Translations under genes and position numbers: made by a program
Source of the DNA: a virus
Taxonomy: Duplodnaviria > Caudoviricetes
Strand: one strand, 5' to 3'
Length of the DNA stretch: 64,000 bases
Virus record (IMG/VR): IMGVR_UViG_3300028275_000007
Part shown: in pieces, positions 26,399 to 41,658 of the stretch
Numbering within the stretch: position 1 is the stretch's first letter
Layout of the letters: each line of letters starts with the position of its first letter
The notes under the pieces: model-generated
Databases searched by the model: none
What the model was told of the DNA's origin: nothing
The model's input: only the letters and a program-made list of their open reading frames with translations

Positions 26399-27197
26399 GG
26401 CCCCGCTGCGCTATAGTGACATATACGTATACGCATAATAAGTCTAGCGTGAGCACGCTCAATGTGCGTATATACGCTGGAAAAAGCTCAGTAAGTGTGA
26501 TTTACTGACCCCCAAGATGCGTATAGAGGTCTAGCGACCTGGTGGGGATTGGAAAAGGGTGCAGAAAAGTAGTAGAAAGTGTGATAAAGTGTGAAATTGT
26601 GTGACCATTTGAGCATAGCCTCTCATACCACCGTTCTAGACTTTTAGTCTACTATAAAATTTACAGTAGATCTCCCTAGTTCGAACCGTTTGACCGTTTT
26701 CTAGACACGAATTCACTCTAGAACTAGCGTTCTAGACTGTTCTAACGACCTATATACAGTGGCCCCGCTGCGAGTGATTCTAGATATATACTGTATACTC
26801 AGGAGCGATCTGATGTTAACCTATATATGCTGTGCAACTCTGCCCTTGGTCCTCATACTCATATACGAATCTATATACAGTAAGAGTTGGCTAGAGCGCC
26901 GTCATGCTCGTATAGTGCTTGCCTGTGGTCTAGCCATTATCCTGAGTCTCTGCTTATAGTGGCCCCGCTGCGTAGGTAACATAATGAAAGACTCAAAAGA
27001 CATAGCTGAATGGGTTCTGCGTGAGATCGCGGGAGTTAATCCCTATACTAGTCAAGACAAGACTCTGGCATTCATTTGGGCCACGGGCTTTCTGGCACGC
27101 TGCGTAGCTGAGATGATCTGGCGGGACAATCACAACTATAAGATCTTTGCAGCAATTCGTGAACGTGCAGCACGGAAACTGGGGAAGGCCCCGCTGC
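26399..27197 (+). repeat. dispersed GGCCCCGCTGC repeat plus phased and palindromic repeats (origin-like region)
   Basis: GGCCCCGCTGC at 26399, 26761, 26961, 27187 (fifth copy 35725); 10-bp phased AAAGTGTGA-type repeat x3 at 26576-26605; TCTAGA x5 at 26635-26784. Confidence 0.75.
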
Positions 27198-27211
27198 AGA
27201 ATACTGACTAA
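26984..27211 (+). CDS. hypothetical protein
   Basis: 75-aa ORF with AGGT RBS. Confidence 0.5.
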   Translation: MKDSKDIAEWVLREIAGVNPYTSQDKTLAFIWATGFLARCVAEMIWRDNHNYKIFAAIRERAARKLGKAPLQNTD

Positions 27212-27299
27212 TTTGCCAAAAAGAGTTGACAAGTTGGGGTTCTGCTCGTATAATATACATATGCTTAAGAAACGAGCACTAACTAGGAGCAGAGAATCA

Positions 27300-27563
27300 A
27301 TGACACTTCCAGATGAGCGGTATCGTAGTGTTAAGACCGCAGCAGAGTTTCTTCAACGTCTAGCGGGTGGGCATTATGCCCGTGTGCCCAAGGCAGTTCG
27401 TGAGGAAGCTCGCAGCATCTTACGACACTATCCTTCATCGTGGGATCTAGATCAAATTGAACGAGCAGCGCCTCACGTTATGCAGCAGCGTATGGAACCC
27501 CTGCACAGGATGGTTGCTGCGTACAATCCAGAAGTAACACAACCTTTAGAGAATCGAGATTAA
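27300..27563 (+). CDS. BPSL0761-like small protein
   Basis: MTLPDERYRSV..AEFL..L..RVPKAVREEARSILRHYP. Confidence 0.6.
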   Translation: MTLPDERYRSVKTAAEFLQRLAGGHYARVPKAVREEARSILRHYPSSWDLDQIERAAPHVMQQRMEPLHRMVAAYNPEVTQPLENRD

Positions 27564-27579
27564 CTACTAGTAAGACGTC

Positions 27580-27664
27580 GCGACTGTGGTGAAATAGGTA
27601 GACACAAGGGACTTAAAATCCCTCGCAGCAATGCATACCAGTTCGATTCTGGTCAGTCGCACCA
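27580..27664 (+). tRNA. tRNA-Leu(UAA)
   Basis: GCGACTG/CAGTCGC acceptor, anticodon loop CTTAAAA, long variable arm, GTTCGAT T-loop, encoded CCA. Confidence 0.95.
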
Positions 27665-27671
27665 TTTAAAT

Positions 27672-27748
27672 CACGCATTAGCTCAGTTGGATAGAGCAAC
27701 AGCCTTCTAAGCTGTGGGTCAGGGGTTCGAATCCCTTATGCGTGGCCA
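27672..27748 (+). tRNA. tRNA-Arg(UCU)
   Basis: CACGCAT/ATGCGTG acceptor, ACAGC-CTTCTAA-GCTGT, GGTTCGAATC, CCA. Confidence 0.95.
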
Positions 27749-27752
27749 GTTA

Positions 27753-27830
<78 letters not shown>

Positions 27831-27877
27831 AGCTGCGAGCCATCTAGTCACTGGCGCAGAGTGCAGCAGCACGGGAG

Positions 27878-27912
27878 AAACCCTATAGCCTAGTAAACTA
27901 TAGGGTTTTTTC
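27878..27912 (+). terminator. terminator of the tRNA operon
   Basis: AAACCCTATAG/CTATAGGGTTT stem plus T-run. Confidence 0.8.
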
Positions 27913-28177
27913 TTGTCCAAAATGCTGTTTGCTTGTATAATATGCATTTAAACAAGGACAGCAATGACAGAACTACAGCACGTCTTCTACGCTGCTTTAG
28001 CACGTATACAGCACTACACGGATCTCGACGACGAAGCTCAGCAAGACGCAATTGCTGCACTCGCGCAGCTAATCGAGGATCACGTCAAATAACCCTAGGC
28101 CCTCTAGGGTCTTTAACAAATTGGTTGACATTTTGGCAGTTCGATCGTACAATATACATATGTTGAAGGAGCGAGCA

Positions 28178-28510
28178 ATGACCACTGTACAACGAAAGAA
28201 GCGTGTAGATCGCAATCACATCATCTACGAACTGCGTGTTAATGGTCAAAACTACATTGGCGTCACTGCCAAGACAGAGTCAACTATTAATAAGTCAGTG
28301 TTGGCACGTGCCGCGAAACACTTCTATCGTGCCAAAACAGAGTCGAAGAACTGGCTCTTGTGTCAAGAACTGCGCAAGCTCGCGAACAAGAACGAGATTG
28401 AAGTACTTGTACATGAGGTCATCCGCGGCAAAGCGGCTGCACACCGTAGGGAAGTAGAAATCCGTAGAGCTGTTAACCCTACACTGAACACGGACATTCG
28501 AGGTGATTGA
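28178..28510 (+). CDS. GIY-YIG-like nuclease domain protein
   Basis: IIYELRV..QNYIGVT..R..H..E. Confidence 0.55.
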   Translation: MTTVQRKKRVDRNHIIYELRVNGQNYIGVTAKTESTINKSVLARAAKHFYRAKTESKNWLLCQELRKLANKNEIEVLVHEVIRGKAAAHRREVEIRRAVNPTLNTDIRGD

Positions 28511-28561
28511 CACCTTGGGTGTTCGGCAGTATAATACAGGTATTGTAACGTTAAGGAGCGA

Positions 28562-28741
28562 ATGATGACTAACCCGATTCCACATAGCAATATTTGGCAC
28601 ACTCCCGCAGATCTCAACGAGCTGCACGATATAATCAATCAGTTCACAGGCCAGGATGCTGCGCTGGCTGCACACGTGATGATGCTGACCCTGAACACCT
28701 GCCACAAATTGGTTGCTGATTCTATCAAGGAGACTGCATGA
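28562..28741 (+). CDS. early small protein (not in ORF track)
   Basis: Own promoter plus AAGGAGCGAATG. Confidence 0.6.
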   Translation: MMTNPIPHSNIWHTPADLNELHDIINQFTGQDAALAAHVMMLTLNTCHKLVADSIKETA

Positions 28742-29106
28742 TGCGTTACTGGGACGAACTGCTGCGCGAACAGCACAATGGGGTCACTGTGATCGTGGAC
28801 AAGACCTGGGAAGATTGCACTATCCGCGATCTCTTTGATGATACCTGCTGTGATGTAGAGGACTTAGAGCGCAAGGTTAACCGGGGCGATTTGGATTGGT
28901 TTATGCTCAGGGCTCGTGTCATGTTCAATGACATGGAACTGGGATCGTCGATCTGCGGTGGCTACCTCTACGAAGATGCTCGCGAGGTTCTCAGGGACGG
29001 TTGTGCTGCTGATCTGATCTGGCAAGCAGAGGAAGAAGCTAAGAAACGATTACCCGAGCTAATTGAAGGGTTATTGCGTGTAGAGGTTGACAAATTGGCT
29101 GCGTGA
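28738..29106 (+). CDS. early hypothetical protein
   Basis: AAGGAG RBS, ATGA overlap; ends VDKLAA over the next promoter. Confidence 0.65.
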   Translation: MMRYWDELLREQHNGVTVIVDKTWEDCTIRDLFDDTCCDVEDLERKVNRGDLDWFMLRARVMFNDMELGSSICGGYLYEDAREVLRDGCAADLIWQAEEEAKKRLPELIEGLLRVEVDKLAA

Positions 29107-29144
29107 GCATACAATAGAGACTTAGTAACACAAAGGAGCGCGAA

Positions 29145-29489
29145 ATGAAACAGACAATTTTTAGCACTAGCGGCGACGGCTACTGGTCTAACGTTGCAAA
29201 GCCTGTACACGTTACAGATATGCGACTTGCATATGTAAACGACGAAAAAGACTTCGGCGAGCTGCGTGTATACTTTAACACTAAGTTTTGGGATGTAGAC
29301 ACAGACGGTCTCATTTACACAGACGAGGGATTTATGACAGACTTGCGCAACTTCCTCGCGCTGCAGGGTCTTAACAACTTAGACATAGACTATAGCGAGC
29401 AAGGGATGCAAGGCGACAATTACGTTAGCTTAGACGTAGGCGCTGCGTTTATTAGTGCGTGGGATGCAAAGTTTAATTTGTTTGCATAA
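29145..29489 (+). CDS. early hypothetical protein
   Basis: Promoter plus GGAGCG RBS; DYSEQGMQGDNYVS. Confidence 0.75.
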   Translation: MKQTIFSTSGDGYWSNVAKPVHVTDMRLAYVNDEKDFGELRVYFNTKFWDVDTDGLIYTDEGFMTDLRNFLALQGLNNLDIDYSEQGMQGDNYVSLDVGAAFISAWDAKFNLFA

Positions 29490-29564
29490 AAACAACAGGG
29501 GTTGACAGCCCCTGCTTTTGACAGTATAATAAACACTTCAACAACGCAACTAAGGAGCGAAACT

Positions 29565-29918
29565 ATGGAAGCGCAAGCACGTGAGTATTTTGTCCGTCGT
29601 CTTAACGAAGTAGCACAAGAGAAGGTGCAGGCTAAGGCTGTAGAACTTTACGGCGCAAGTGGCCGTCCAGAACAGCCTACGTGGGGTATGGTCTTTGAGG
29701 GCATCCGCTCAGGCGAGATTACCCTTAAAGCAGACAAGGTAGACTACACGGGTCCTTACCTCAACCCTACGGACGTGGAGTGGCCTGCTATGGAAGCAAA
29801 GAAAGCAGAGCTGGAAGCATATCGCAAGTTGGTAGCCGCTGAGAAGCAACGGGCTATGGACGCTGTCTATTTGGACGAGAGCGCACAAGAAGCCCTTAAG
29901 GCATTTGAAGCAATTTAA
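29565..29918 (+). CDS. early hypothetical protein
   Basis: Promoter plus GGAGCGAA RBS. Confidence 0.7.
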   Translation: MEAQAREYFVRRLNEVAQEKVQAKAVELYGASGRPEQPTWGMVFEGIRSGEITLKADKVDYTGPYLNPTDVEWPAMEAKKAELEAYRKLVAAEKQRAMDAVYLDESAQEALKAFEAI

Positions 29919-29980
29919 GGGGTTGACAGGGCCTACGGGCCCTGTTATAATATAGGCTTAGCAACACACAGGAGCGAACA

Positions 29981-30421
29981 ATGGCTACACGAAGCACTAT
30001 TGCAATGGAGCAACCCGACGGCCGCGTAATGCAGATCTACTGCCACTGGGACGGCTACATTGATCACAACGGTCAAATTCTCAGCGAACATTATACAGAT
30101 CGTGCCAAGGTCCTGGCACTCATGCTCTTGGGATCGATCAGCTCGCTGCGTCCTGAGATCGGTGAGCCTCACGACTTCGATGCTCGCTATACCAACGAAG
30201 ATCACCGCAACAACTGGACCTGTGCCTACGGTCGAGATCGTGGTGAGAGCGATACTGAAGCTGCTGTTTTCGCTAACTACGAAGCCTACGTCAAGGATCA
30301 CCAGTACGAGGAATACGAGTATATCTTCCGTTCGGACGATCAGTGGTATGTTTCCGAATACGGACGCCCCTACCGCTTGCTCGCTGCTGTGTTGATGGAA
30401 GCAGAAACCCTAGAAGACTAA
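29981..30421 (+). CDS. early hypothetical protein (YCHWDGY motif)
   Basis: MATRSTIA..IYCHWDGY..YEEYEY. Confidence 0.75.
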   Translation: MATRSTIAMEQPDGRVMQIYCHWDGYIDHNGQILSEHYTDRAKVLALMLLGSISSLRPEIGEPHDFDARYTNEDHRNNWTCAYGRDRGESDTEAAVFANYEAYVKDHQYEEYEYIFRSDDQWYVSEYGRPYRLLAAVLMEAETLED

Positions 30422-30496
30422 GGGTTATTTTTAGGGGTTGACAGGTTGGCTGTTTGATGGTACAATAGAGTCATAGTTAAACAAAACGGAGCGAAG

Positions 30497-31603
30497 ATGC
30501 AGATTACATTCACTGAAGGCTGGTACAACATCAAGGGTCAACCTGTTAACGTTGCAGGACTTACTTTTAATCTTGTAGAAGATTACAAAGTGTCTAAGAA
30601 CGGCGACGGCTATGTTACTGTTGATGGTACTAGTGTAGAGGGCTTCCCTGAGCGCAATATCCGAATCAAGTGCCGTCAGGGCGACTATGCTGTCGCAGGT
30701 ACTGTTCAAGCAACACAAATTCCACAAGGGGTATCAATGCTGACTGCTTTAAAGTCAAAGAGTGCCAAAGGCGCAGAGGTCACCGATTTCACTCAGATCA
30801 AGGTGCCCGATACTGCTGTAGCACACGAGTCCGACGAGGACATCATCGAACGCACTCGTCTGCGCTTTGACATCCTCAAAGATATGACTAAAGCTGTCAA
30901 GAATGGTGATGTACGTGCTATGATCGTCACAGGCCCTCCAGGTGTGGGCAAATCCTTTGGCGTTGAAGAAGTACTTGCCAAAGACGATCTGTTTGATATG
31001 ATGGGTCAGCGTAAGCCCAAATATGAGATCGTCAAGGGCGCAATGTCAGCCATTGGTCTGTACACTAAGCTCTACAAATACTCAGACGCTAAGAACATTC
31101 TTGTGTTCGACGACTGTGACTCAATTCTTTTGGACGACATTGCACTTAACATTCTTAAGGCCGCTTTGGACTCTAGCAAGAAGCGTACCATTTCGTGGAA
31201 CACTGACAGCCGTCTGCTTCGTTCAGAAGGAGTGCCAGATCGTTTCGAGTTCAAGGGTGGTGCTATCTTTATCACTAACTTGAAGTTTGAGAACGTTCGC
31301 TCTAAGAAACTGCAGGAGCACTTGGCGGCCCTAGAGTCACGCTGTCACTATATTGATCTGCGTATGGACACAGATCGCGAGAAGGTACTGCGTATCAAGC
31401 AGATTGTCAAGGATGGTATGTTGGATAGCTACGAGCTGGAGGACATTGCCAAAGATGAGGTTGTCAGCTTCATCGACGACAATCGCGCTACTATGCGTGA
31501 ACTGAGCCTGCGTACTGTGCTCAAAGTCGCAGACCTGCGCAAGAGCTTCCCATCTAACTGGCAGAATATGGCCAAGGTCACTGTTATGAAAGGAATTGCA
31601 TAA
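30497..31603 (+). CDS. P-loop AAA+ ATPase
   Basis: Walker A GPPGVGKS, Walker B ILVFDD, IFITN sensor, SR finger. Confidence 0.85.
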   Translation: MQITFTEGWYNIKGQPVNVAGLTFNLVEDYKVSKNGDGYVTVDGTSVEGFPERNIRIKCRQGDYAVAGTVQATQIPQGVSMLTALKSKSAKGAEVTDFTQIKVPDTAVAHESDEDIIERTRLRFDILKDMTKAVKNGDVRAMIVTGPPGVGKSFGVEEVLAKDDLFDMMGQRKPKYEIVKGAMSAIGLYTKLYKYSDAKNILVFDDCDSILLDDIALNILKAALDSSKKRTISWNTDSRLLRSEGVPDRFEFKGGAIFITNLKFENVRSKKLQEHLAALESRCHYIDLRMDTDREKVLRIKQIVKDGMLDSYELEDIAKDEVVSFIDDNRATMRELSLRTVLKVADLRKSFPSNWQNMAKVTVMKGIA

Positions 31604-31833
31604 TGGATTACCGTCCGCTGACCTGTCAGTGGATTGGGCCCGAACAGGACCCCCGCAAGGGTTCTGTTCACTACTGCGGTAAGCCCAATCTAACTGGAAA
31701 GAGCTACTGTGCTGACCACTTCTACAAAGTATATCAGGGTGGCACTTCAGTAAATGGAAAACGAGCAGAAAAGCTCTTGCAAAAGGAAATCGAGTCTGTT
31801 AAACTAGCAGAAGAGATAGGAGAATTACTATGA
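31603..31833 (+). CDS. GcrA C-terminal-like zinc-binding domain protein
   Basis: TCQWIG..YCG..KSYCADH matches the GcrA pattern C.WPIG..FCG..PYC..H. Confidence 0.6.
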   Translation: MDYRPLTCQWIGPEQDPRKGSVHYCGKPNLTGKSYCADHFYKVYQGGTSVNGKRAEKLLQKEIESVKLAEEIGELL

Positions 31834-32027
31834 GTACCGTAATTAAGATCGCATTGGCATTCTTGCTGATCGTTGTATTGTTGGCGATTGGACCGTGGCT
31901 TGTGATCTGGTCACTGAACACGCTGTTCCCTAGCCTGGCTATTGAATTTGGTTTGGCTACTTGGGCTGCTGTTGTGATCCTAGGAACTTTCTTTCGAGCG
32001 AATGTATCCGTAAAAAGGAAAGATTGA
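31830..32027 (+). CDS. two-TM membrane protein
   Basis: Hydrophobic; GGAG RBS. Confidence 0.6.
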   Translation: MSTVIKIALAFLLIVVLLAIGPWLVIWSLNTLFPSLAIEFGLATWAAVVILGTFFRANVSVKRKD

Positions 32028-32111
32028 GGTTGATTCTTCCAGAGCGTTCTGCTAATATTTAAGAACGCTGAAGAACAAGTAATCAGCTATATTAACTTAA
32101 AAGGAAACAAA

Positions 32112-32384
32112 ATGAAACGCATTTCTAAAGACACCAAGACTTTCAAGGTCTTCAACGCACTTTACAATGGTGCAAAACTTACCCAATCCGAAGCAACTAA
32201 GCGTTTCGGCGTAGGTAACTTGGCTGCTGAAGCAAGCCGCATTCGTCAGCATGGTTACGCTGTTTATGCCAACACTCGTGTTGCTGGCAACGGTGTGACT
32301 GTTACCGAATACGAGTTGGGCCAACCAAGCCGTGAGATCGTAGCACTTGGCTACAAAGCTCGCGCAATGGGTATCACTCTTTAA
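32112..32384 (+). CDS. winged helix-turn-helix-like protein
   Basis: LT..EA.KRFGV.NL.A..SRIR..GY.V..N....TEY; own promoter, biased codons. Confidence 0.6.
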   Translation: MKRISKDTKTFKVFNALYNGAKLTQSEATKRFGVGNLAAEASRIRQHGYAVYANTRVAGNGVTVTEYELGQPSREIVALGYKARAMGITL

Positions 32385-32460
32385 GAGTCGCTCCTAAAGT
32401 AAACGATCCGATTCGCTCCCGGGGACTTTCTTTGAGCCGCTACTACAGCGGCTTTTCTTT
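32385..32460 (+). other. 3'-UTR carrying two anti-GGAGCG sites and a terminator
   Basis: TCGCTCCT 32388-32395, CCG-ATTCGCTCC-CGG 32408-32422, GAGCCGCT/AGCGGCTT hairpin plus T-run. Confidence 0.6.
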
Positions 32461-32565
32461 TGGCTGGATGTTGCAAAAATGCCACACCGGCCGGCACTCT
32501 CCAAACCGGTTGACAACTTGGGCGATCAGCTATATAATAGAGACAGTTAGACAACGGAGCGAAGA

Positions 32566-33207
32566 ATGCAATTCACAGCAGATCAAGTATGGGGCCTGGC
32601 TGTTAGGGCTGATGTTCAAAATGGCGGCTACTGCAAAGAGCCAGTCTATGCTGCTACTGCCACCCACGGGATAGACTACAACACCGTGATCAAGCAACCA
32701 AACAAGGTCTTGGTCAAGCAATGGCTCCGCGACAATGTGCAGCCTACAGCAGAAGAGATCGCTCAGGGACAGCAATATCGCGCACAGATCAACACCTTCA
32801 CCATGAAGCTGCTGACTGGGAAGATCACAGACTTCGAGCAGACTGCTCTCAAGATTGCCCAAAAGGACGAGTTCACGGGCCGTGATATGTTGGACTTCGC
32901 CATTGTCAGCTGCTTGCCCCAGTCAGCTCGCATGGAGCAATCCCGGACGGAGATGAAACGAGAACTGTTCCAAAGTGAGCAACTCCCGGGCGCTGTAGGG
33001 GATACTGTTGTGATCTCTCTGACTGTAATACGTTCGCGTTACAATCCTGAATACAACAAGTTCAAGATCTACGCCCGTGCAGGTGAGTCATTTGTGGACT
33101 TTTGGTTCTCACGTGCTGTAGAAGGTGAACTGCGGGTGAAGGCCAAGATCAAACAGCATCGTGGCGATAAAACAACAGCCCTAAATTATGTGAAAATCAT
33201 CAGTTGA
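32566..33207 (+). CDS. early hypothetical protein (possible C-terminal OB fold)
   Basis: Promoter plus GGAGCGAA RBS. Confidence 0.65.
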   Translation: MQFTADQVWGLAVRADVQNGGYCKEPVYAATATHGIDYNTVIKQPNKVLVKQWLRDNVQPTAEEIAQGQQYRAQINTFTMKLLTGKITDFEQTALKIAQKDEFTGRDMLDFAIVSCLPQSARMEQSRTEMKRELFQSEQLPGAVGDTVVISLTVIRSRYNPEYNKFKIYARAGESFVDFWFSRAVEGELRVKAKIKQHRGDKTTALNYVKIIS

Positions 33208-33281
33208 CAGGTTGGGCACCTGGTGCTACAATAATGATACTGAGAGAGTAATTGTTTTAACTGTTTTTTAAGCGAGGTCTT

Positions 33282-34367
33282 ATGTCAAAGCAAGTAGATG
33301 TTTCCGTTCGCCAAGTTGGTCCTAAAAACGCCAAGAAGGCAATTCGTAAGGCGGTCAATGTTCGCCGTCCAGTGTTCCTGTGGGGTCCTCCAGGCATTGG
33401 TAAATCCGATCTCGTCAAGCAGATCGGTGAAGACGCAGGTCGTGAGGTCATCGACGTCCGCCTAGCACTTTGGGAGCCCACCGACATCAAGGGTATTCCT
33501 TATTACAATGCCGATCAAGGCAAAATGACTTGGGCTCCTCCTGCAGAACTGCCTGTGGACCCAGATAGCAAGGCAATCATCTTCTTGGATGAATTGAACT
33601 CTGCTCCTCCTGCTGTTCAGGCCGCGGCCTATCAGTTGATTCTGAACCGTCGTGTTGGTACCTACGAACTGCCTAAGGGTGTTGACGTAGTCGCCGCTGG
33701 TAACCGTGAAGGTGACCGTGGTGTTACCTACCGTATGCCTGCTCCGCTGGCTAACCGTTTCGTTCACTTGGAAATGAAAGTGGACTTTGATGACTGGCAA
33801 GACTGGGCTACCTTGAACAAGGTGCATCCAGATGTCGTAGGTTATGTAGGCTTTGCCAAGCAAGACCTGTATGACTTCGATCCTAAGAGCCCTAGCAAGT
33901 CATTTGCTACTCCTCGTTCTTGGATGTTCGTTTCTGACCTGCTCAGCGACGACGATGTTGACAACGAGACTTTGGCTACCCTGATTGCGGGTGCCGTTGG
34001 TGACGGTCTGAGCAATAAGTTTATGGCTCACCGTAAGATCGCAGGCAAACTGCCTAAGGCAGAAGACATTTTGGATGGCAAGGTCAAGGACCTGCAGATC
34101 AAAGAAGTGTCTGCGATGTATTCGTTGACTGTTTCACTCTGCTACGAGTTGAAAGACCGTGCTGAGAAGAAGGTCAAGGACTGGGACGGTATGGCAGATA
34201 ACTTCTTTGCCTATATGATGGCTAACTTCCCAACAGAGTTGGTTGTTATGGGTGCAAAGACTGCTCTTACTAACTACGACCTGCCCCTGGACGCTACTAA
34301 GATGAAGTCGTTCGACGAGTTCCACAAGCGTTTCGGCAAGTATGTTCTTTCAGCAATGGAGAATTAA
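33282..34367 (+). CDS. MoxR-like AAA+ ATPase
   Basis: WGPPGIGKS, FLDELN, AAGNR, PLANRF, TPRSW. Confidence 0.9.
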   Translation: MSKQVDVSVRQVGPKNAKKAIRKAVNVRRPVFLWGPPGIGKSDLVKQIGEDAGREVIDVRLALWEPTDIKGIPYYNADQGKMTWAPPAELPVDPDSKAIIFLDELNSAPPAVQAAAYQLILNRRVGTYELPKGVDVVAAGNREGDRGVTYRMPAPLANRFVHLEMKVDFDDWQDWATLNKVHPDVVGYVGFAKQDLYDFDPKSPSKSFATPRSWMFVSDLLSDDDVDNETLATLIAGAVGDGLSNKFMAHRKIAGKLPKAEDILDGKVKDLQIKEVSAMYSLTVSLCYELKDRAEKKVKDWDGMADNFFAYMMANFPTELVVMGAKTALTNYDLPLDATKMKSFDEFHKRFGKYVLSAMEN

Positions 34368-34384
34368 GACCTCGCCCATTGCGG

Positions 34385-34415
34385 GGGTGTTGTAGAAATA
34401 CAACACCCTTTTTTT
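34385..34415 (+). terminator. intrinsic terminator
   Basis: GGGTGTTGTA-GAAA-TACAACACCC plus T7. Confidence 0.9.
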
Positions 34416-34473
34416 ACGGTTGACGCATTGGATTTCCGGTGCTATAATATATACATACTAAGGAGAGCGACTT

Positions 34474-35679
34474 ATGGATCCAATCGTTGAGAAACTAACT
34501 ACTGCACGAGTAGGCCTGCTTTTGAAAGCACCCTTCTTCGGCAATATGGCCACCCGTATGCGTTTGATGGACGCTTCAGACTGGTGCCCTACCGCGGCAA
34601 CTAACGGCCGTGACTTTATGTATAACAAGGACTTCATTAACAAACTGTCTGTTAAGAAGTTAGAGTTCCTGCTGGCACACGAGATCTGCCACTGCGTTTT
34701 TGATCACTTTGGTCGCGTAGGTTCACGTGATCGTATGCTGTCTAACATCGCACAGGACTATGCCGTAAACCAAATCCTTGTAGACGAACGCATCGGTGAG
34801 AAGATCACCGAGGTTAAGATCTGCTACGATCCCAAGTATCGTGGTATGGCTTGGGAAGAAATCTACGATCAATTGTATGAACAAGCAGAGAAGATCCCTA
34901 TGGATCAACTGCTGAAGCAATTGGGTGACCTTTTGGACGAGCACATTAAAGAAGAAGAAGGTGCTGGTAGCCCTGGCGACAAGACCAAAGACGGCAAAGA
35001 GAAGCCTACGCTCAGTAAGGAAGAAGCTGAGAAACTGCGTCAAGAGATCAAAGAGGCTATGATCCAAAGTGCCGCGGCCGCTGGTGCAGGTAAGACTCCT
35101 GCGGGCATTATGCGTATGATCAAGACTATGACTGAGCCTAAAATGGACTGGCGCCAATTGGTTCAGCAAGAGATCCAATCTATTGTGCGTAATGACTACT
35201 CATTCGCTCGCTACAATCGTAAGAGCCAACACTCAGGTGCGGTGCTTCCTGGTATGAAAGAAGCAACTACCATTGACGTGGCTATTGCAATCGATATGTC
35301 GGGTTCGATCGGTGAAGAGGATGCAACTGTATTCCTTTCTGAGATCAAAGGCATTATGGATCAATACGAGGACTTCAAGATCAACCTGTGGTGTTTTGAC
35401 ACAGAGATCTACAATCACCAAAGCATCAGCCACGACAACGCTGAAGACTTGGTTGAGTATGAACCTCAAGGTGGCGGTGGCACAGACTTCGATGTCAACT
35501 TTACCTTTATGGAAGAGAATGACATTCGCCCTAAGAAGTTCATTATGTTCACAGACGGCTATCCCTGCGGTAGTTGGGGTCCTGAGGACTACTGCGACAC
35601 AATCTTTATCGTTAAAGGTAACACATCTGCTCAAGCACCCTTTGGTCAGACTGTTATCTACGAAAAGGAAACGGGCTAA
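34474..35679 (+). CDS. DUF2201-type metallopeptidase plus VWA domain protein
   Basis: TAATNG, AHEICH (HExxH), NIAQDYAVN, IDMSGS MIDAS, GGGTDF, FTDG. Confidence 0.88.
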   Translation: MDPIVEKLTTARVGLLLKAPFFGNMATRMRLMDASDWCPTAATNGRDFMYNKDFINKLSVKKLEFLLAHEICHCVFDHFGRVGSRDRMLSNIAQDYAVNQILVDERIGEKITEVKICYDPKYRGMAWEEIYDQLYEQAEKIPMDQLLKQLGDLLDEHIKEEEGAGSPGDKTKDGKEKPTLSKEEAEKLRQEIKEAMIQSAAAAGAGKTPAGIMRMIKTMTEPKMDWRQLVQQEIQSIVRNDYSFARYNRKSQHSGAVLPGMKEATTIDVAIAIDMSGSIGEEDATVFLSEIKGIMDQYEDFKINLWCFDTEIYNHQSISHDNAEDLVEYEPQGGGGTDFDVNFTFMEENDIRPKKFIMFTDGYPCGSWGPEDYCDTIFIVKGNTSAQAPFGQTVIYEKETG

Positions 35680-35820
35680 CCGGAGTGCCGGGGGTTGTGG
35701 CTAAAAAGCCACAACTTCCTAAGTGGCCCCGCTGCTACGTGTGTGCGTGAATCTAGGTCTTGACAGATAGGTAGATTGGTTGTATAATATAGATATCGTA
35801 ACAAAGTAAGGAGTGATAAA

Positions 35821-35952
35821 ATGCTTAAATTCTTGTTAGGAGTATTTTTAACATTGGCTGTCCTGTACCCTGCTGTTACTAAGACCATCGTTGGTAATGC
35901 TGTTGATACCACCCACACGGTTGTAACTGGAGTTATGGAGAATGCTAAATGA
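35821..35952 (+). CDS. small membrane protein (not in ORF track)
   Basis: Promoter plus AAGGAG; MLKFLLGVFLTLAVLYP. Confidence 0.55.
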   Translation: MLKFLLGVFLTLAVLYPAVTKTIVGNAVDTTHTVVTGVMENAK

Positions 35953-36125
35953 GTAAAGTCGCAGATCTTGCCTATGATATCGAGCAACTGTATATCGAAG
36001 GTCATTCGCCTAAGATGATTGCTCTCATGTTGGAGTGCCCCACAGAGATGGTCTATGATTGGATCGCCGGTAACGGGCTAACCACAGACGATTCCTACGA
36101 TCCGTTTGAGACTGTAAATTCGTGA
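35949..36125 (+). CDS. small protein (not in ORF track)
   Basis: ATGA overlap; MSKVADLAYDIEQLYIEGHSPKMIA (HTH-like). Confidence 0.55.
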   Translation: MSKVADLAYDIEQLYIEGHSPKMIALMLECPTEMVYDWIAGNGLTTDDSYDPFETVNS

Positions 36126-36388
36126 GCAAATTAGAATACTACGCCCGCCCCCTTGTAGCCTTTGATCCAAGGAACAAGATGCACAGACGCTACTACAACC
36201 AATTCCTAGAGCATATGAGTTGGGGTCACTGTCCGGTTCGGTTCATCTGCCCGGAATCTAACGGTTCGGATTTGGTCAAAATGATCCAAACAGAGCTGCT
36301 CAAATACTATGTTGAGAAAGAGTTTAAGGTCAAGAAGAAACCCGCCAAACTCAAAGGTTATCCACATATCGCTAAAAAAACTGGTTGA
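36122..36388 (+). CDS. hypothetical protein
   Basis: GTGA overlap; RPLVAFDP..WGHCPVRF. Confidence 0.6.
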   Translation: MSKLEYYARPLVAFDPRNKMHRRYYNQFLEHMSWGHCPVRFICPESNGSDLVKMIQTELLKYYVEKEFKVKKKPAKLKGYPHIAKKTG

Positions 36389-36435
36389 CACTTTGGCTGA
36401 TCCTTGCTATAATTGACACATAGTTAGGAGAGCGA

Positions 36436-36576
36436 ATGGAATACACCGTGATTTACCCCAATGGCAACTCCCAGAAGTTCTACGTTCGGGCTGTAGCGGA
36501 AATGTACGCCACAATCAACGGCGGCCGTGTTGTAGGAAAACCTGAGTTGAAATTGGTTGACAAATTGGCTGCTTGA
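36436..36576 (+). CDS. 46-aa early protein (not in ORF track)
   Basis: Promoter plus GGAGAGCGAATG; ends LVDKLAA. Confidence 0.55.
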   Translation: MEYTVIYPNGNSQKFYVRAVAEMYATINGGRVVGKPELKLVDKLAA

Positions 36577-36608
36577 TCATACAATAGAACTATGATAAGG
36601 AGCGAACG

Positions 36609-36857
36609 ATGATAACAGAAAAACAGCGTGTTGTAAATGCCCTAAAGGGTTGGCAGTTCGTGCGTGGAACCCATGGTTGCTTGTATGATCGTGGATCCGC
36701 AGACTCCTACTACGGTAGGGCACGTGATCCTCACTACGGTGGAGTGGGAGGCGATTCCGGCGCCCGAGTCTCGGTCAACGACGAGGCTTCAGTGGCTGAA
36801 TACATGGCCGGCTACAACGACAACGAGCGTGATGGTAACAAGAAGGATTGGCGATGA
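36609..36857 (+). CDS. early hypothetical protein
   Basis: HG..YDRGSADSYYGR motif; GGAGCGAA RBS. Confidence 0.7.
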   Translation: MITEKQRVVNALKGWQFVRGTHGCLYDRGSADSYYGRARDPHYGGVGGDSGARVSVNDEASVAEYMAGYNDNERDGNKKDWR

Positions 36858-37051
36858 CCCCTACGGAATTTCAATACATTCAACGAGCCGTCAAGGCCTT
36901 GGAAACACCCATGAGCCTTCCAGAGAGGATTAAGGTGGAACGCACTATGGCCCAGATTCTGAGTCGCTCCGCTGACACTTTGGAACAGAATTTGGTTGAC
37001 AACATCGAAGATCGGTTGTATAATACTAATACTGAAACAGAAGGAGCGTGA
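36854..37051 (+). CDS. hypothetical protein
   Basis: ATGA overlap with the upstream gene. Confidence 0.5.
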   Translation: MTPTEFQYIQRAVKALETPMSLPERIKVERTMAQILSRSADTLEQNLVDNIEDRLYNTNTETEGA

Positions 37052-37052
37052 T

Positions 37053-37676
37053 ATGCCAAATTGGTGCAACAACACATTGACCCTTGAGCACGATGATCCA
37101 GCAATGATTACTCGTGCCAAAGAAGCACTGGATCGTGGAGAGTTCCTGCAGGAGTTCATTCCTGTGCCCAAAGAACTCACAGAAACCATGGCTGGTTCCT
37201 ACGGGGACGGAGACAAGCAGGCCGCATTGGAAGCACAGATGAAGTCCAATGTTGAAAAGTTTGGCTACAGCAACTGGTATGACTACTGCGTCGGCGAGTG
37301 GGGAACCAAATGGGATGTAGGTGGCGATGGACAGACTGATATTCACCCTGATGGTAAGACGCTGTTCACTACCTTTGATTCAGCATGGTCTCCACCCGTG
37401 AATGCTTATCAGAAGTTAGAGCAACTAGGCTTCCGAGTTTCTGCACAGTTCTATGAATCAGGTATGGCTTTTGCTGGTGTATATGAGGACGGCAACTGCG
37501 AGGACTTTAGCCTCGAAGGCATGACTGCTGATGAGATCGAACGGGATTACCCAGAACTAGACGAAGCGTTCTGCATCGCTGAGGCTATCCGTGAGTTCCA
37601 GGAAGAGGAAGAAGAAGAACTCACAGAGTGGATCAAAGATGGTGTTGACAAGAACCTGGAGTTGAAGTCTCTATGA
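37053..37676 (+). CDS. DUF1281/YubB ferredoxin-like domain protein
   Basis: MPNWCNN, NWYDYC..WGTKWD, FDSAWSPP, FYESGMAFAG. Confidence 0.8.
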   Translation: MPNWCNNTLTLEHDDPAMITRAKEALDRGEFLQEFIPVPKELTETMAGSYGDGDKQAALEAQMKSNVEKFGYSNWYDYCVGEWGTKWDVGGDGQTDIHPDGKTLFTTFDSAWSPPVNAYQKLEQLGFRVSAQFYESGMAFAGVYEDGNCEDFSLEGMTADEIERDYPELDEAFCIAEAIREFQEEEEEELTEWIKDGVDKNLELKSL

Positions 37677-37987
37677 CAATGACTGTGGTCAAAATGGACC
37701 GACGCTATGACGGGCACGATCGCTTCAGTCATAGAGTCGAGTTCACAGGCTATCAGCCACATGGCCAGAAGCAGACTCGAATTGCACAATGGGTTCGAGC
37801 TCGCAACTGGCTGTGGCAACAGTTTGGTCCTTCAGGAGAATTGTTCTGCGCCCGGCCCACTTACTTCGATGGACATCAGCCGGTTTGGGCCTGGGATGCA
37901 GAGAAATCATCGCTGTATCTGAGCAAGGAAGCCTACACGATGTTTATGTTACGCAAGGAATTTTGGGAAAATGTCGAGAACCTTTAA
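37673..37987 (+). CDS. hypothetical protein
   Basis: Coupled ORF. Confidence 0.6.
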   Translation: MTMTVVKMDRRYDGHDRFSHRVEFTGYQPHGQKQTRIAQWVRARNWLWQQFGPSGELFCARPTYFDGHQPVWAWDAEKSSLYLSKEAYTMFMLRKEFWENVENL

Positions 37988-38177
37988 CTATCGATTAGAA
38001 GTCATCTGTGGAGGTTCAGGCACAGCGGACGAGGTCCGGGTCGAGGAAATGCTCGATTTGGCCTTTCAGGATCTGGTCTATGACGACGAGTTTATCGCCG
38101 CCCTAGACGAGAAAGAGTCTGTGACCATTCGAGTGTCTAAATTGGACAACCGAATGGTTGACAGAAGTGGCACTTGA
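37971..38177 (+). CDS. hypothetical protein
   Basis: Coupled ORF, acidic. Confidence 0.55.
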   Translation: MSRTFNYRLEVICGGSGTADEVRVEEMLDLAFQDLVYDDEFIAALDEKESVTIRVSKLDNRMVDRSGT

Positions 38178-38240
38178 TGCTACATTTATAACATACCAAA
38201 AAGGTATATTTTTTAACACACACAGAAAGAGGTAATTTAA

Positions 38241-38552
38241 ATGGCTACAGATAAGAAGTTTGCGGTTGCTGGTGTTTCCACTCAAGCAGGTAAGACCAAG
38301 GTTCGTTTCGCTAATGACGTGATGCGCATCAAGATCCTTGCCAAGAATGGTCACACTGACATCAACCTCGTGGATCTTCCACGTGAAATGACCAAGGCTG
38401 AGATTGGTGCCTATATGGTCGAAACTGGCTTTGGCAAGGGCAATGCTGCTGTAGAAGCTGCTGTTGCTTACATTGTCAAGAAGAACCCTTTGGCCACAGC
38501 TGCCAAGGTAAGTAAGACTACTGTCGCGAAGACAGAAGCTATCGCCGAATAA
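38241..38552 (+). CDS. probably highly expressed small basic protein
   Basis: Own promoter, GAGG RBS, strongly biased codons, A/K-rich tail. Confidence 0.7.
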   Translation: MATDKKFAVAGVSTQAGKTKVRFANDVMRIKILAKNGHTDINLVDLPREMTKAEIGAYMVETGFGKGNAAVEAAVAYIVKKNPLATAAKVSKTTVAKTEAIAE

Positions 38553-38621
38553 ACCCGATTCGCTCCCGGTATCGGCGGTCTTAACACCCTACTGTATACA
38601 CGTACAGTAGGGTTTTTTTTG
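38553..38621 (+). other. 3'-UTR with anti-GGAGCG hairpin and terminator
   Basis: CCGATTCGCTCCCGG 38555-38569 (identical to 32408-32422); ACCCTACTGTA/TACAGTAGGGT plus T-run. Confidence 0.65.
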
Positions 38622-38670
38622 GTTGACAACTGGCGTTTTTGAATATATAATTAAACAATAGGAGAGCGCG

Positions 38671-39063
38671 ATGGAACTTATTGATTGGATCACACTAGCT
38701 ATATTCTTTGCCCTGGGTTGGTTCCTAGGTAACAGGGCTGCGACCCGCATTCATCTCACTGCTTTCTCCATGATCCTCAAGGAGTTGGGCGTGAAGAATC
38801 AGGATTTGATTCGTGTGGCTCGTGCCAATGGCCTCACTATCCCTGAACCTGAGCATGATGAACCTGAGTTAGATCACATCGAAATCAAGGTGGAAAAGCA
38901 CGGTGAAATGCTCTATGCTTTCCGCAAGGACAACGATCGGTTCCTAGGCCAAGGCACTTCACGTGAAGAACTCATCAATCGTATGGCTGAGTCACTGCGC
39001 AATGTTCGCTGTACCGTAGTGGAAGGCAATGAGTATATGATCAAGGATAGCCCTACAAGCTAA
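38671..39063 (+). CDS. N-terminal TM protein
   Basis: Promoter plus GGAGAGCG; N-terminal TM helix. Confidence 0.65.
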   Translation: MELIDWITLAIFFALGWFLGNRAATRIHLTAFSMILKELGVKNQDLIRVARANGLTIPEPEHDEPELDHIEIKVEKHGEMLYAFRKDNDRFLGQGTSREELINRMAESLRNVRCTVVEGNEYMIKDSPTS

Positions 39064-39135
39064 AGGGTTATTACAAATTGGTTGACAGATTGGCTGTTTG
39101 GGCATACAATATACACATACTAACAAGGAGCGAAG

Positions 39136-39318
39136 ATGTTAACAAACAAGCAAAACCAGCAACTGCTCAGGGCTGTGGAACTACTGCAGGAAGCAGACGC
39201 ATTGGTACAGTCAGCAATGGGCGCCAGCGACGAATGCTACTACATCCACACACAAATTGAAAACTCAGCGGATGACGTGCTGGACTTTATACAAGAGAAC
39301 ACTGAAGAGGCAGCGTAA
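39136..39318 (+). CDS. early small protein
   Basis: Promoter plus GGAGCGAA. Confidence 0.65.
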   Translation: MLTNKQNQQLLRAVELLQEADALVQSAMGASDECYYIHTQIENSADDVLDFIQENTEEAA

Positions 39319-39629
39319 TGGAAGCCCTACAGGAAACCACTGGGGGGCAGTTTCCTGCCCACACTTACCTACTCGATGGCACAACGCTGGTTGCCTATAT
39401 CAAGCAAGGGGAAACTACGCCATTCTATTTCAAGTCAGGAATCAAAGGCTTCGACAAGCGAGGCCGGAAGTTCCAAACCGTAACACCAAACCCATTCAAA
39501 GTAAAGGCATCAAATGACACACGCACAGTCCAAGGCTCAAACGGCAAAACTTACACAGTCAACGACGCAGAGAAAACCTGTACCTGTCCAGGATTTACAT
39601 TTAGAGGTGCCTGCAAACACCTGGGCTAA
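39318..39629 (+). CDS. SWIM zinc-finger protein
   Basis: CTCPGFTFRGACKH. Confidence 0.75.
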   Translation: MEALQETTGGQFPAHTYLLDGTTLVAYIKQGETTPFYFKSGIKGFDKRGRKFQTVTPNPFKVKASNDTRTVQGSNGKTYTVNDAEKTCTCPGFTFRGACKHLG

Positions 39630-39669
39630 TATGGTTGACAGATTGGTAAAAGGCTGTTAAAATACACAT

Positions 39670-39894
39670 ATGATAAACAACTTACTCCAATGGTCCGGTA
39701 CTGCATTCCTCTTAGGAATGTATGTGGTTATGAACTTCTTCCACACTCTGCATCCTCTGCAGATCGTCTTGGGACTCTGCGGTGGCCTGTGCTATTTTGC
39801 TTGGAGCTACCGTGTGGCAAATAAGCCACAGATGATCGTTAACCTAGCGGGCATATCCGTATGCGCCGCAGGGTTATTCCACTATTTTGGTTGA
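39670..39894 (+). CDS. three-TM membrane protein
   Basis: Hydrophobic, own promoter. Confidence 0.6.
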   Translation: MINNLLQWSGTAFLLGMYVVMNFFHTLHPLQIVLGLCGGLCYFAWSYRVANKPQMIVNLAGISVCAAGLFHYFG

Positions 39895-39946
39895 CAGTTT
39901 GGGCTAAAGATCCTATACTATAAACACTGAAACAAAGGAGCGAACA

Positions 39947-40060
39947 ATGATCAAACTCATCGGATGGATTGCAGTTACCTGGGCTCTGTTCCACTTTGGC
40001 ATTGCTCAGGCCATCTTAATCACGGCCGCTGCTGCGGGAACCATAGTCTTCGGAGGTTGA
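39947..40060 (+). CDS. 37-aa hydrophobic peptide (not in ORF track)
   Basis: Promoter plus GGAGCGAA. Confidence 0.55.
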   Translation: MIKLIGWIAVTWALFHFGIAQAILITAAAAGTIVFGG

Positions 40061-40061
40061 T

Positions 40062-40322
40062 GTGTCAGGTTGGGTAGTCTACGATCAGCGTTCGGGTCAT
40101 ATGCAGAAGTATTACAAGCTGGCTGCAACTGCGAAAAGGATCGTCACACAGCACAACACAGAACGCGAGTATGATTGGGGCGATGGCTCAGGCAGCTACA
40201 CCTATCGTCCTCAGAGTCTTTGGGCCTGCTGCTCCTATGCAGACTACGAAGGGATTCTAATGGGTCTGCGTGGGGAAGCGTTTAAGATGTGGCAGTTTGT
40301 GCGCAATAACCCTAGAGGTTGA
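40062..40322 (+). CDS. hypothetical protein
   Basis: GTG start with GGAGG RBS. Confidence 0.55.
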   Translation: MSGWVVYDQRSGHMQKYYKLAATAKRIVTQHNTEREYDWGDGSGSYTYRPQSLWACCSYADYEGILMGLRGEAFKMWQFVRNNPRG

Positions 40323-40585
40323 CAGGTCTTCCAAAAGACAGTATAATTGACACATACACAAACAAACAAGGAGCGAAAGATGATCAATCAAGACCTTAGA
40401 GTAATCGCAGGAATCCAAGAACGCCTGGGCCAACTGCCCGTGCTGGAAACCCTGATCTATATCGAAAACAACACTGGCGAGTTCACTATCGCTGAACTGC
40501 GTAGTTTCTACAACGTGATGTCACAATTCCGTGCGCTGTTTGCTGCCGCCTAAAGACCCTAGAGGTTGACAGGTCTTCCAAAAGA
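40309..40585 (+). repeat. 30-bp direct repeat spanning two promoters
   Basis: ACCCTAGAGGTTGACAGGTCTTCCAAAAGA at 40309-40338 and 40556-40585. Confidence 0.9.
40380..40553 (+). CDS. early small protein
   Basis: Promoter plus GGAGCGAA. Confidence 0.6.
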   Translation: MINQDLRVIAGIQERLGQLPVLETLIYIENNTGEFTIAELRSFYNVMSQFRALFAAA

Positions 40586-40623
40586 TCGTATAATACACGC
40601 ATATTAACAAATAGGGAGCGCAA

Positions 40624-40860
40624 ATGAAACACAACGAAGTTCAACTCTACAAGAACATCGGCTCTATCCAGGCAGTCGAGGGTGACGAAGGCCGCTACTA
40701 CTTCTACCGTCACTTTGCCACAGGTAACACCTGCGATGAAGACACCATCAAAGGCGCCAAAGAGATGTTGGATTGGGAAGAAAAGAACTATCAAGAAGTA
40801 CAGGCCGCGATCCGTGTGCTTCAGGGCCGTGGCTATCGTGTGTTCAAAGAAGTGGCCTAA
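40624..40860 (+). CDS. early small protein
   Basis: Promoter plus GGAGCG. Confidence 0.65.
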   Translation: MKHNEVQLYKNIGSIQAVEGDEGRYYFYRHFATGNTCDEDTIKGAKEMLDWEEKNYQEVQAAIRVLQGRGYRVFKEVA

Positions 40861-40926
40861 ATTGGTTGACAAACGGCCAGTTCGATCGTATAATATACAC
40901 ATACACTAAACAACTAGGAGCTGAAA

Positions 40927-41109
40927 ATGGTTACAGAAGGTCAGGGAATGTTTGTCGTCATAGTAGGACTTGTGATCACTATGTTGGGCACAGGTGGTGT
41001 AGAGAATAGCATCACCAACACAGAGCTGCTACAGGCCCTAGCTGTTGCAGTAACTGGACTAGGTGCAATGTATGCAGGTACACTTATGATCCAGAGGGCT
41101 CAGCAATGA
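40927..41109 (+). CDS. two-TM small membrane protein
   Basis: Promoter plus GGAGCT. Confidence 0.6.
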   Translation: MVTEGQGMFVVIVGLVITMLGTGGVENSITNTELLQALAVAVTGLGAMYAGTLMIQRAQQ

Positions 41110-41333
41110 CTATAGAACTACACGGACTTAATCGTCAACAACATCAGATCGCAGACATGATCTGGAGCTGTGAATCGCAAGCAGATGTTGAGCGGCTTAT
41201 ACGGAACCTGCCCCCCGCATATCAAAAGGATGCTGTAGTCATACACGATCTAATGATCGCTGCTGTGATGGATCAACATATGGAGATCACTGAAGATGTT
41301 CGTGCGCTTATTCGTAGCCTTAGCTCTAGCTAA
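41106..41333 (+). CDS. hypothetical protein
   Basis: ATGA overlap. Confidence 0.6.
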   Translation: MTIELHGLNRQQHQIADMIWSCESQADVERLIRNLPPAYQKDAVVIHDLMIAAVMDQHMEITEDVRALIRSLSSS

Positions 41334-41496
41334 TCTAGCTGCCTGTACAGCCTACGATCGTAGAGACGCAGCTTGGTCACGGCCCTATCATCAGAAGTTT
41401 GATCAGATTCCCAATCAACCTGGCGAGGCTCTTCGACGCTGTGGAGGTCAGGTTAGACCTGAACTGAGGACACCGGAGATGACCGACCGGTGCTGA
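41296..41496 (+). CDS. putative lipoprotein
   Basis: LALANLAA|C lipobox. Confidence 0.5.
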   Translation: MFVRLFVALALANLAACTAYDRRDAAWSRPYHQKFDQIPNQPGEALRRCGGQVRPELRTPEMTDRC

Positions 41497-41658
41497 GGTG
41501 GTGGGGGGTGGCCGGTATAGTGTGTATACTATAGTAGTAGTTTTACTAGCGGTATGGGGTCTAAAATCACCACCCTGAAATGAAAAGTACTCCACCCAAA
41601 TTTTTTGCGCGGCCAAATTTTTGACCTCTAAAACCCTTTTCTTAGTATATACTAGTCT

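Follow-up and report, generated by a model that had tools for sequence, protein, structure and literature searches.

The stretch of DNA considered here, hereafter the window, comprises 64,000 nucleotides of IMG/VR virus record IMGVR_UViG_3300028275_000007 and forms part of the genome of a large uncultured phage from river metagenomes; the subject is a GGAGCG leader motif shared by its early genes and the exact complement of that motif, carried by hairpin loops in two 3' untranslated regions (UTRs). The gene content of the window includes a DNA ligase, DnaB-like and other helicases, a primase and virion proteins, and most of the replication and virion genes lie on the minus strand. Unlike the rest of the window, the segment from 26.8 to 41 kb has every gene on the plus strand, and it holds at least 21 near-perfect sigma70 promoters (TTGACA-17-TATAAT), each followed by a short leader and a small gene; this segment is the early region, read by host polymerase. 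No integrase or repressor was seen in the 64 kb of genome examined, and the phage is apparently virulent.

Early leaders and anti-leader hairpins in the window

All 14 GGAGCG sites in ribosome-binding-site (RBS) position belong to promoter-proximal early genes of the plus-strand cluster (26.8-40.6 kb). Thirteen of them had been listed in the initial annotation, nine as GGAGCGAA, together with three GGAGAGCG variants; these coordinates hold, the GGAGCG-to-ATG offset at the 13 being 9-11 nt, and a fourteenth site of the same kind lies at 26802. The variants, at 34462, 36427 and 38661, stand ahead of the starts at 34474, 36436 and 38671. GGAGCGAA has 11 copies in the window against 1.3 expected, a number reached in 0 of 100 shuffles; nine are RBS-positioned on the plus strand, each 1-3 nt ahead of an ATG, and the remaining two come from reading the 15-mers described below on the opposite strand. 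The enrichment at early over other starts, which the initial annotation had put forward for testing, is borne out, as the GGAGCG leader is found at none of the ~58 non-early genes of the window and at no operon-internal early gene. The CGAA part of the motif cannot pair with the canonical 16S 3' end. Since the other genes of the phage use ordinary AGGAG-type sites lacking CG, the host ribosome does not need GGAGCG, and the possibility, also raised at the outset, that the host 16S 3' end accounts for the motif is disfavoured.

Among 342 distinct promoter-leader modules of the phage family, the positions that follow GGAG are C in 81%, G in 79%, A in 58% and A in 54%, and GGAG is mostly separated from the start codon by 5-6 nt (248 of 342; range 4-10). 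The distance from the motif to the -10 element, on the other hand, varies from 7 to 30 nt. Being fixed relative to the ATG and variable relative to the -10 element, the motif is therefore tied to translation and not to the promoter. In the GGAGAGCG class the Shine-Dalgarno (SD) element is shifted by two bases with GAGCGA kept, which suggests that GAGCGA itself is under selection. The leaders of the window are as follows.

26802-26809, plus strand: early leader GGAGCGAT
28168-28175, plus strand: early leader GGAGCGAG
28555-28563, plus strand: early leader GGAGCGAAU, complementary to the loop at 9/9 positions, top-ranked among predicted targets (-14.3 kcal/mol)
29135-29142, plus strand: early leader GGAGCGCG
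29554-29561, plus strand: early leader GGAGCGAA
29971-29978, plus strand: early leader GGAGCGAA
30488-30495, plus strand: early leader GGAGCGAA, ahead of the ATPase-like gene 30497-31603
32556-32563, plus strand: early leader GGAGCGAA
34462-34469, plus strand: early leader GGAGAGCG, GAGCGA kept
36427-36434, plus strand: early leader GGAGAGCG, GAGCGA kept
36599-36606, plus strand: early leader GGAGCGAA
37043-37050, plus strand: early leader GGAGCGTG
38661-38668, plus strand: early leader GGAGAGCG
39127-39134, plus strand: early leader GGAGCGAA
39937-39944, plus strand: early leader GGAGCGAA
40370-40377, plus strand: early leader GGAGCGAA
40615-40622, plus strand: early leader GGAGCGCA

The complement of this motif is carried by the 15-mer CCGATTCGCTCCCGG, which occurs exactly at 32408-32422 and again at 38555-38569 (0.02 expected), in both cases between a stop codon and an intrinsic terminator. 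The identity of the two copies, their placement and a second site at 32387-32394 had all been noted beforehand and are confirmed. The two genes in question are hereafter termed carriers, and their features are these.

32030-32058, plus strand: sigma70-like promoter of the winged helix-turn-helix (wHTH) carrier gene, TTGATT-17-TAATAT, read from sequence
32112-32384, plus strand: carrier gene 1, 90-amino-acid wHTH protein (Pfam HTH_39, E 1.4e-5; phrog_4973; 80 relatives)
32387-32394, plus strand: anti-leader site 1, GUCGCUCC (DNA GTCGCTCC), just 3' of the stop, outside the conserved hairpin and in some relatives only
32396-32433, plus strand: anti-leader hairpin 1, outer stem AAAG.AAA / UUUCUUU, apex 32408-32422 CCG-AUUCGCUCC-CGG, loop 32411-32419
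32434-32462, plus strand: intrinsic terminator of carrier 1
38158-38186, plus strand: sigma70-like promoter of carrier gene 2, TTGACA-17-TACATT
38241-38552, plus strand: carrier gene 2, 103-amino-acid protein, RBS AGAGGU
38541-38579, plus strand: anti-leader hairpin 2, outer stem of the last codons AUCGCCGA with UCGGCGGU, apex 38555-38569, loop 38558-38566
38586-38622, plus strand: intrinsic terminator of carrier 2

The hairpin was first described as resting on its CCG/CGG stem, which by itself is weak (-2.4 kcal/mol); the hairpin is nonetheless real, because longer outer stems extend that stem. UUCG in the loop AUUCGCUCC fits the YUNR U-turn pattern of loop-acting antisense RNAs. Prediction of loop-leader duplexes, a further check proposed with the first description, gives a mean of -11.9 kcal/mol for 19 early leaders against about -4 at other starts (p 5e-11), and the mean predicted anti-SD duplex, at -9.0 kcal/mol, is weaker than that between loop and leader. 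A third site in the window (36963, GTCGCTCC) was rejected for want of a hairpin and because a plausible coding frame runs through it. Comparison of positions 27000-42000 with Rfam (cmscan, E<=1) returned only three tRNAs and one sub-threshold chance match.

River metatranscriptomes were available as assembled contigs only, whose ends and levels are not reliable and whose depths cannot be ranked. In run X22 a contig of depth 140 spans 32250-32422, ending at the last base of the 15-mer, with 32441-32545 uncovered; in run X21 a contig of depth 38 also ends at 32422, running straight into Illumina adapter sequence, and the next contig has a depth of 4.5. The contigs of runs X20 and X24 continue past this position. 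These ends, seen in two of four runs, are a weak hint of an abundant RNA end or processing site at 32422, on the 3' side of the apical stem and upstream of the terminator.

Conservation and matched change among related phages

The relatives compared are uncultured IMG/VR phages, with 37 loci encoding homologues of the 103-amino-acid protein and 80 encoding wHTH homologues. Behind the same two genes in ~60 distinct relatives, and likewise between stop codon and terminator, the apex CCG-AUUCGCUCC-CGG is nearly invariant amid divergent flanks, and the outer stems vary in sequence from phage to phage yet stay complementary. In the hairpins behind the 103-amino-acid gene the last codons pair with bases 3' of the apex (e.g., GUUACCGCU/AGCGGUAAC, GUUGCUGA/UCAGCAAC and UCACUGA/UCAGUGA), and those behind the wHTH gene have a CAAA...UUUG base beneath a variable inner helix. 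When the 5' flank of one phage was joined to the 3' flank of another and each sequence folded under constraint, the native hairpins were the more stable, at -13.0 kcal/mol against -8.7 for the chimeras behind the 103-amino-acid gene (18 distinct relatives; p 1.6e-6) and -13.2 against -10.7 behind the wHTH gene (p 6e-7). RNAalifold on plain MAFFT alignments recovered the CCG/CGG stem, a few outer pairs and nothing more, owing to the unequal lengths of the outer stems. Around the same loop the closing stem is at times swapped (UCG/CGA, CAG/CUG, CCUAGG/CCUAGG, CUAG/CUAG), and some UTRs hold two or three such hairpins. In L098, L102 and L106-L110 some copies of AUUCGCUCC in the wHTH 3' UTR stand outside any hairpin loop. 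No part of the UTR is more accessible than the loop: UCGCUCC has a median probability of 0.42 of being unpaired, and the remaining 7-mers of these RNAs one of 0.001. Folding favours the sense over the antisense strand in 35 of 40 wHTH UTRs (106 G.U pairs against 35), and the structure therefore belongs to the mRNA strand. Occurrences of TTCGCTCC elsewhere in five large related contigs were discarded as leaders of opposite-strand genes or chance matches in coding sequence.

A second leader type came to light in one relative (L061, record G006, 357 kb) whose wHTH protein is 82% identical to that of the window and whose early leader is (A)GAGGG[C/U]; no loop lies behind its wHTH gene. Leaders of this kind are termed B-type and those with GAGCG A-type. 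A first search for a B-type element with RCCCTCT gave no enrichment (20 forward against 20 control matches). A two-site GCCCTC pattern gave one match in G006, on the early-gene strand, and none in the controls, and two other records of the clade (G007 and G008) have no GCCCUC array. The match in G006 is the 3' UTR of a gene for a 368-amino-acid ATPase-like protein, 60% identical to the window gene at 30497-31603, and this UTR forms four hairpins with GCCCUC in each loop, the last of them being the terminator (fold z -6.8). A further 80 loci round the ATPase-like gene were then added, and distinct carrier UTRs were classed by the leader type of their locus; as a loosely defined hairpin around the 6-mer GCCCTC matched much background in A-type loci, it was replaced by counts in the three carrier UTRs, as follows.

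GAGCG-leader loci, UCGCUCY present: 18/20 UTRs of the 103-amino-acid gene, 39/42 wHTH UTRs, 2/16 ATPase-like UTRs
GAGCG-leader loci, GCCCUC present: 0/78 UTRs
GAGGGY-leader loci, UCGCUCY present: 0/38 UTRs
GAGGGY-leader loci, GCCCUC present: 27/35 ATPase-gene UTRs, 63 sites

Thus, among 116 distinct UTRs, none of those holding either motif is discordant with the leader class of its locus, and the expectation of the initial annotation that the loop would co-vary with the leader in related phages holds at clade level; nor is there among the relatives any clear case of a leader-rich phage devoid of the loop, which had been named among the findings that would refute the idea. GCCCUC lies in hairpin loops of the minimum-energy fold at 65 of 79 sites. 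One A-type phage (L209) carries, together with its A-type leaders, an A-type apex atop the terminator hairpin behind its ATPase-like gene, which is the site of the array in the B clade. When 70 ATPase-like proteins are placed on a tree, A and B types separate into two clades (support 96); the 50 classifiable loci comprise 24 A/A, 26 B/B and 0 mixed, and leader type and loop type each switch once, on the same branch. Chance or a protein-binding site would not readily produce two unrelated complementary motif pairs, of 8 and 6 nt. No third pair came from the L033 clade, whose leaders are AAGGAAC and whose locus holds no complementary loop. Several B-type phages (L136, L139, L165, L170, L171, L174 and L176) have a second ATPase-like copy directly 3' of the first, with a GAGGGC leader of its own, and their GCCCUC array apparently lies behind this second copy.

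This matched change bears on two explanations that do not involve pairing between RNAs. The first is that the element is a protein or RNase site with incidental complementarity, whether nut/boxA-boxB-like, a T7-like RNase III or stability hairpin, or a site for the carrier product. Its invariable position directly before an intrinsic terminator is reminiscent of lambda nutR, a CGCUC-containing stretch lies upstream in some copies, and the abrupt contig ends at 32422 would be consistent with processing. Anti-leader site 1, as CGCUCCUAAAG, also resembles boxA CGCUCUUAAAA. However, this boxA-like stretch is present in a minority of relatives, the loop is 9 nt long and not a GNRA-like pentaloop, no N-like gene was identified, and antitermination is not needed because the downstream genes have their own promoters. 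A T7-type RNase III hairpin is an irregular duplex of ~20 bp cut once on the 3' side of an internal loop; the stems here total 12-15 bp, which is short for RNase III, and the contig end at 32422 falls 3' in the apical stem. Moreover, a nut site would not be expected to change together with the leader, and an explanation of this kind leaves unaccounted for two unrelated loops that are each the complement of their own clade's leader, the chance of matched complementarity being estimated at ~4^-8 and ~4^-6, respectively, for the two pairs. A protein or RNase site is accordingly considered improbable.

The second explanation, a double-stranded DNA operator, for instance for the wHTH protein, that occurs in both orientations by chance, had been offered as the alternative in the initial annotation and now appears barely tenable. 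That the wHTH gene is itself one carrier and has a palindrome over its own promoter speaks for it, although this palindrome, AGCGTTCT, is a different sequence. Against it stand the covarying stems, the excess of G.U pairs favouring one RNA strand, the placement of the leader motif relative to the ATG instead of the promoter, and the different motif pair of the B clade despite a wHTH protein that is 82% identical.

A proposed antisense mechanism and its relation to known systems

The present data allow a model to be put forward, at a probability of roughly 0.65, in which a 3'-UTR-borne antisense RNA pairs with the ribosome-binding sites of the early genes. This model proposes that the 15-mer is the apex of a conserved hairpin in the 3' UTR of two well-expressed genes transcribed by host polymerase, where the 9-nt loop AUUCGCUCC would be held open on its stem just 5' of the terminator. 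The loop would then pair with GGAGCGA(A), the RBS of the promoter-proximal gene at almost all early sigma70 promoters, covering the SD in a duplex predicted to be stronger than that with 16S RNA, so that the 30S subunit may be kept off ~17 early mRNAs, which could perhaps also be marked for decay. As carrier RNA accumulates, the early regulon would be throttled or shut off. The carriers themselves would escape repression because they use other ribosome-binding sites. The two motifs with their complementarity, the hairpin with its covarying stems and strand bias, the open loop and the matched clade-level change are observed; pairing in the cell, the ensuing repression, its timing, a helper protein and the nature of the active form (3' fragment or full mRNA) are the parts of this model that are inferred.

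Several observations weigh against the model. The lowest-energy fold of the second window copy hides part of the loop, and the probability of being unpaired is 0.07 for one of the two window copies. The single switch of leader and loop on the ATPase tree amounts to one independent event, and the B clade shows that an odd leader held in common can persist through ancestry of the cassette, so that conservation of the leader by itself proves nothing. One small group (L098/L102/L109) keeps AUUCGCUCC, but most of its sampled leaders are GGAGCWG and pair over only 5-7 bp; the state of L098, L102 and L106-L110 may be either transitional or a sign that the loop has another target. In addition, the carriers have sigma70-type promoters like their targets, and late shut-off is thus not built into the timing of transcription.

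The same pairing could serve to silence the early mRNAs of a second, related phage, with the A and B types as specificity groups of superinfection exclusion. Each clade shares its leader and loop, which change jointly, single river samples contain many related strains, and the sigma70-type carrier promoters imply that the RNA is made from the start of infection, which would suit exclusion better than delayed shut-off. Temperate phages, too, use antisense RNAs as immunity factors (P1 c4, P4 CI). However, such an RNA would strike the early mRNAs of the resident phage equally, leaving self and non-self unseparated, and exclusion as the purpose is regarded as unlikely. The pairing may time shut-off, do no more than damp early expression, or exclude a second infecting phage. 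In a wider form of this proposal, which is speculative and rather doubtful, large freshwater phages would possess private translation codes, in which a clade-specific SD extension on all early leaders and its matching anti-leader RNA define incompatibility or superinfection-exclusion groups based on RNA; competition between phages would drive the diversification of these groups, as with temperate immunity groups.

An alternate scenario confines the pairing to a single molecule, the 3'-UTR loop folding back on the 5' GGAGCG leader of its own transcript and circularising the mRNA, which would silence the first gene or protect the ends, as in hok fbi or the 5'-3' UTR pairing of icaR. The interval from the promoter at 30438 (leader 30488) to the wHTH terminator yielded no other terminator, and neither did that from the promoter at 36996 (leader 37043) to the terminator of the 103-amino-acid gene, so that each loop could lie on a transcript that starts with a GGAGCG leader. 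The carriers were at first taken to be self-contained transcripts; they do have sigma70-like promoters of their own, but both may also be read from upstream early promoters. It is nonetheless improbable that fold-back is the function of the element, as ~17 leaders face only three anti-leader sites and most leader transcripts end at terminators without a loop, the promoters of the carriers themselves are followed by other leaders, and the arrays of two to five loops in one UTR exceed the need of a single 5' end.

Pairing in trans between loop and leader has precedents among phages. P1/P7 c4 RNA, P4 CI RNA and lambda OOP are phage RNAs whose exposed loops pair with leaders or ribosome-binding sites of the same phage as an off-switch in trans. 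As with c4 and CI, the loops here show complementarity to leaders or ribosome-binding sites of mRNAs from the same phage; those RNAs, however, serve temperate immunity, act on one operon and are cut from a leader transcript, whereas the present element occupies 3' UTRs, faces ~17 leaders and belongs to an apparently virulent phage. The 3'-UTR-derived small RNAs of the Hfq type (CpxQ, SroC, DapZ) have their seed 3' of the stop codon and 5' of an intrinsic terminator, which provides the 3' end of the small RNA. The position between stop and terminator and the conserved, accessible, target-complementary seed recur in the window; seeds of that class, though, are usually single-stranded stretches, and the one described here is an apical loop.

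Among bacterial systems the nearest counterpart is the cuckoo/CcsR family of alphaproteobacteria (Rfam ar14, RSs0680), in which anti-SD hairpin loops often stand several in a row, and Rhodobacter CcsR derives from the 3' UTR of a small-protein gene, is released by RNase E and is bound by the small protein encoded upstream (PMC8034643). Loops of anti-SD type and a position in the 3' UTRs of small-protein genes (90 and 103 amino acids here) are shared features, and the only hint of processing of a carrier UTR comes from the contig ends at 32422 in two of four runs, contigs being unreliable for ends. However, the cuckoo loop CCUCCUCCC is a general anti-SD, while UUCGCUCC or GCCCUC is the complement of a private phage SD extension, and with loops of AUUCGCUCC or GCCCUC instead of CCUCCUCCC and no match to an Rfam model, the element does not belong to that family. 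Furthermore, cuckoo RNAs are cellular stress regulators, and the targets here would be the early regulon of the virulent phage itself. In T4, RegB and RegA are proteins that silence many early mRNAs through a short RBS motif, GGAG in the case of RegB (PMC3014915). The presumed purpose is the same, but these routes have no RNA partner and nothing complementary to the leader. For virulent Pseudomonas phages there is a catalogue of UTR-derived RNAs that gives no targets (PMC10914365), and literature searches returned no description of the present motif or design. The element is real and conserved, and it is best read as a phage form of anti-SD hairpin riboregulation.

RNA regulators of virulent phages with a known target are very few, and none was found that targets a whole regulon; here the candidate target set, ~17 leaders in one window, can be read straight from the sequence, and the element is conserved across a large and abundant family of uncultured river and lake phages. 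The two presumably orthogonal leader/anti-leader pairs, GGAGCGA/UCGCUCC and GAGGGC/GCCCUC, constitute natural, ready-made compensatory mutants, and because the promoters match the sigma70 consensus and the parts are short, the hypothesis is testable in E. coli without the host. If the model is true, it would add an RNA-based means of shutting off early genes to the protein-based ones of T4, explain the odd conserved bases beside the SD in phage early cassettes and supply compact orthogonal translation switches for engineering.

Carrier genes and other features of the early region

Both carriers have long leaders with 5' hairpins and ribosome-binding sites other than the GGAGCG type. That of carrier gene 1 is AAAGGAAAC, without GAGCG, and in relatives a consensus-type promoter lies at the same distance from the wHTH gene; the promoter of carrier gene 2 is followed by a leader of ~48 nt with a 5' hairpin. 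A perfect 8-bp inverted repeat, AGCGTTCT/AGAACGCT, straddles the -10 element of the wHTH promoter (32043-32069); the wHTH protein may regulate its own gene through this putative operator. The 103-amino-acid protein has 1525 metagenomic homologues but no Pfam, PHROG, Atlas or Foldseek-PDB match (structural model with a predicted local distance difference test score, pLDDT, of 74), and tblastn found no match in cultured phages; for the wHTH protein the best cultured match in the same kind of search was 36% only (Pelagibacter phage HTVC008M). Distant homologues of the 103-amino-acid protein (L030-L034) have long lysine/alanine-rich tails resembling histone H1 or nucleoid proteins, and the protein may bind nucleic acid, perhaps its own UTR. 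At the DNA level, megablast and blastn found nothing close to the window among 50,697 phage records.

Elsewhere in the window, TAAATA or TATAAATA-like motifs stand 10-25 nt before the starts of many minus-strand genes (1-26000 and 42000-64000), for example those ending at 1310, 8981, 15969, 45701, 52310 and 59440; these motifs resemble T4 late promoters. The start of the early region is marked by three clustered tRNA genes (Leu-UAA, Arg-UCU and Met-CAU; 27580-27830). In its middle, at 33282-35679, a MoxR-like AAA ATPase gene is followed by one for a DUF2201 metallopeptidase/VWA-like protein, a gene pair common at the DNA level to PA5oct-like Pseudomonas jumbo phages. Near its far end, the ATG at 39670 sits 6 nt past the -10 element of the promoter at 39635-39663, and the mRNA from this promoter may be leaderless and hence beyond RBS-directed control.

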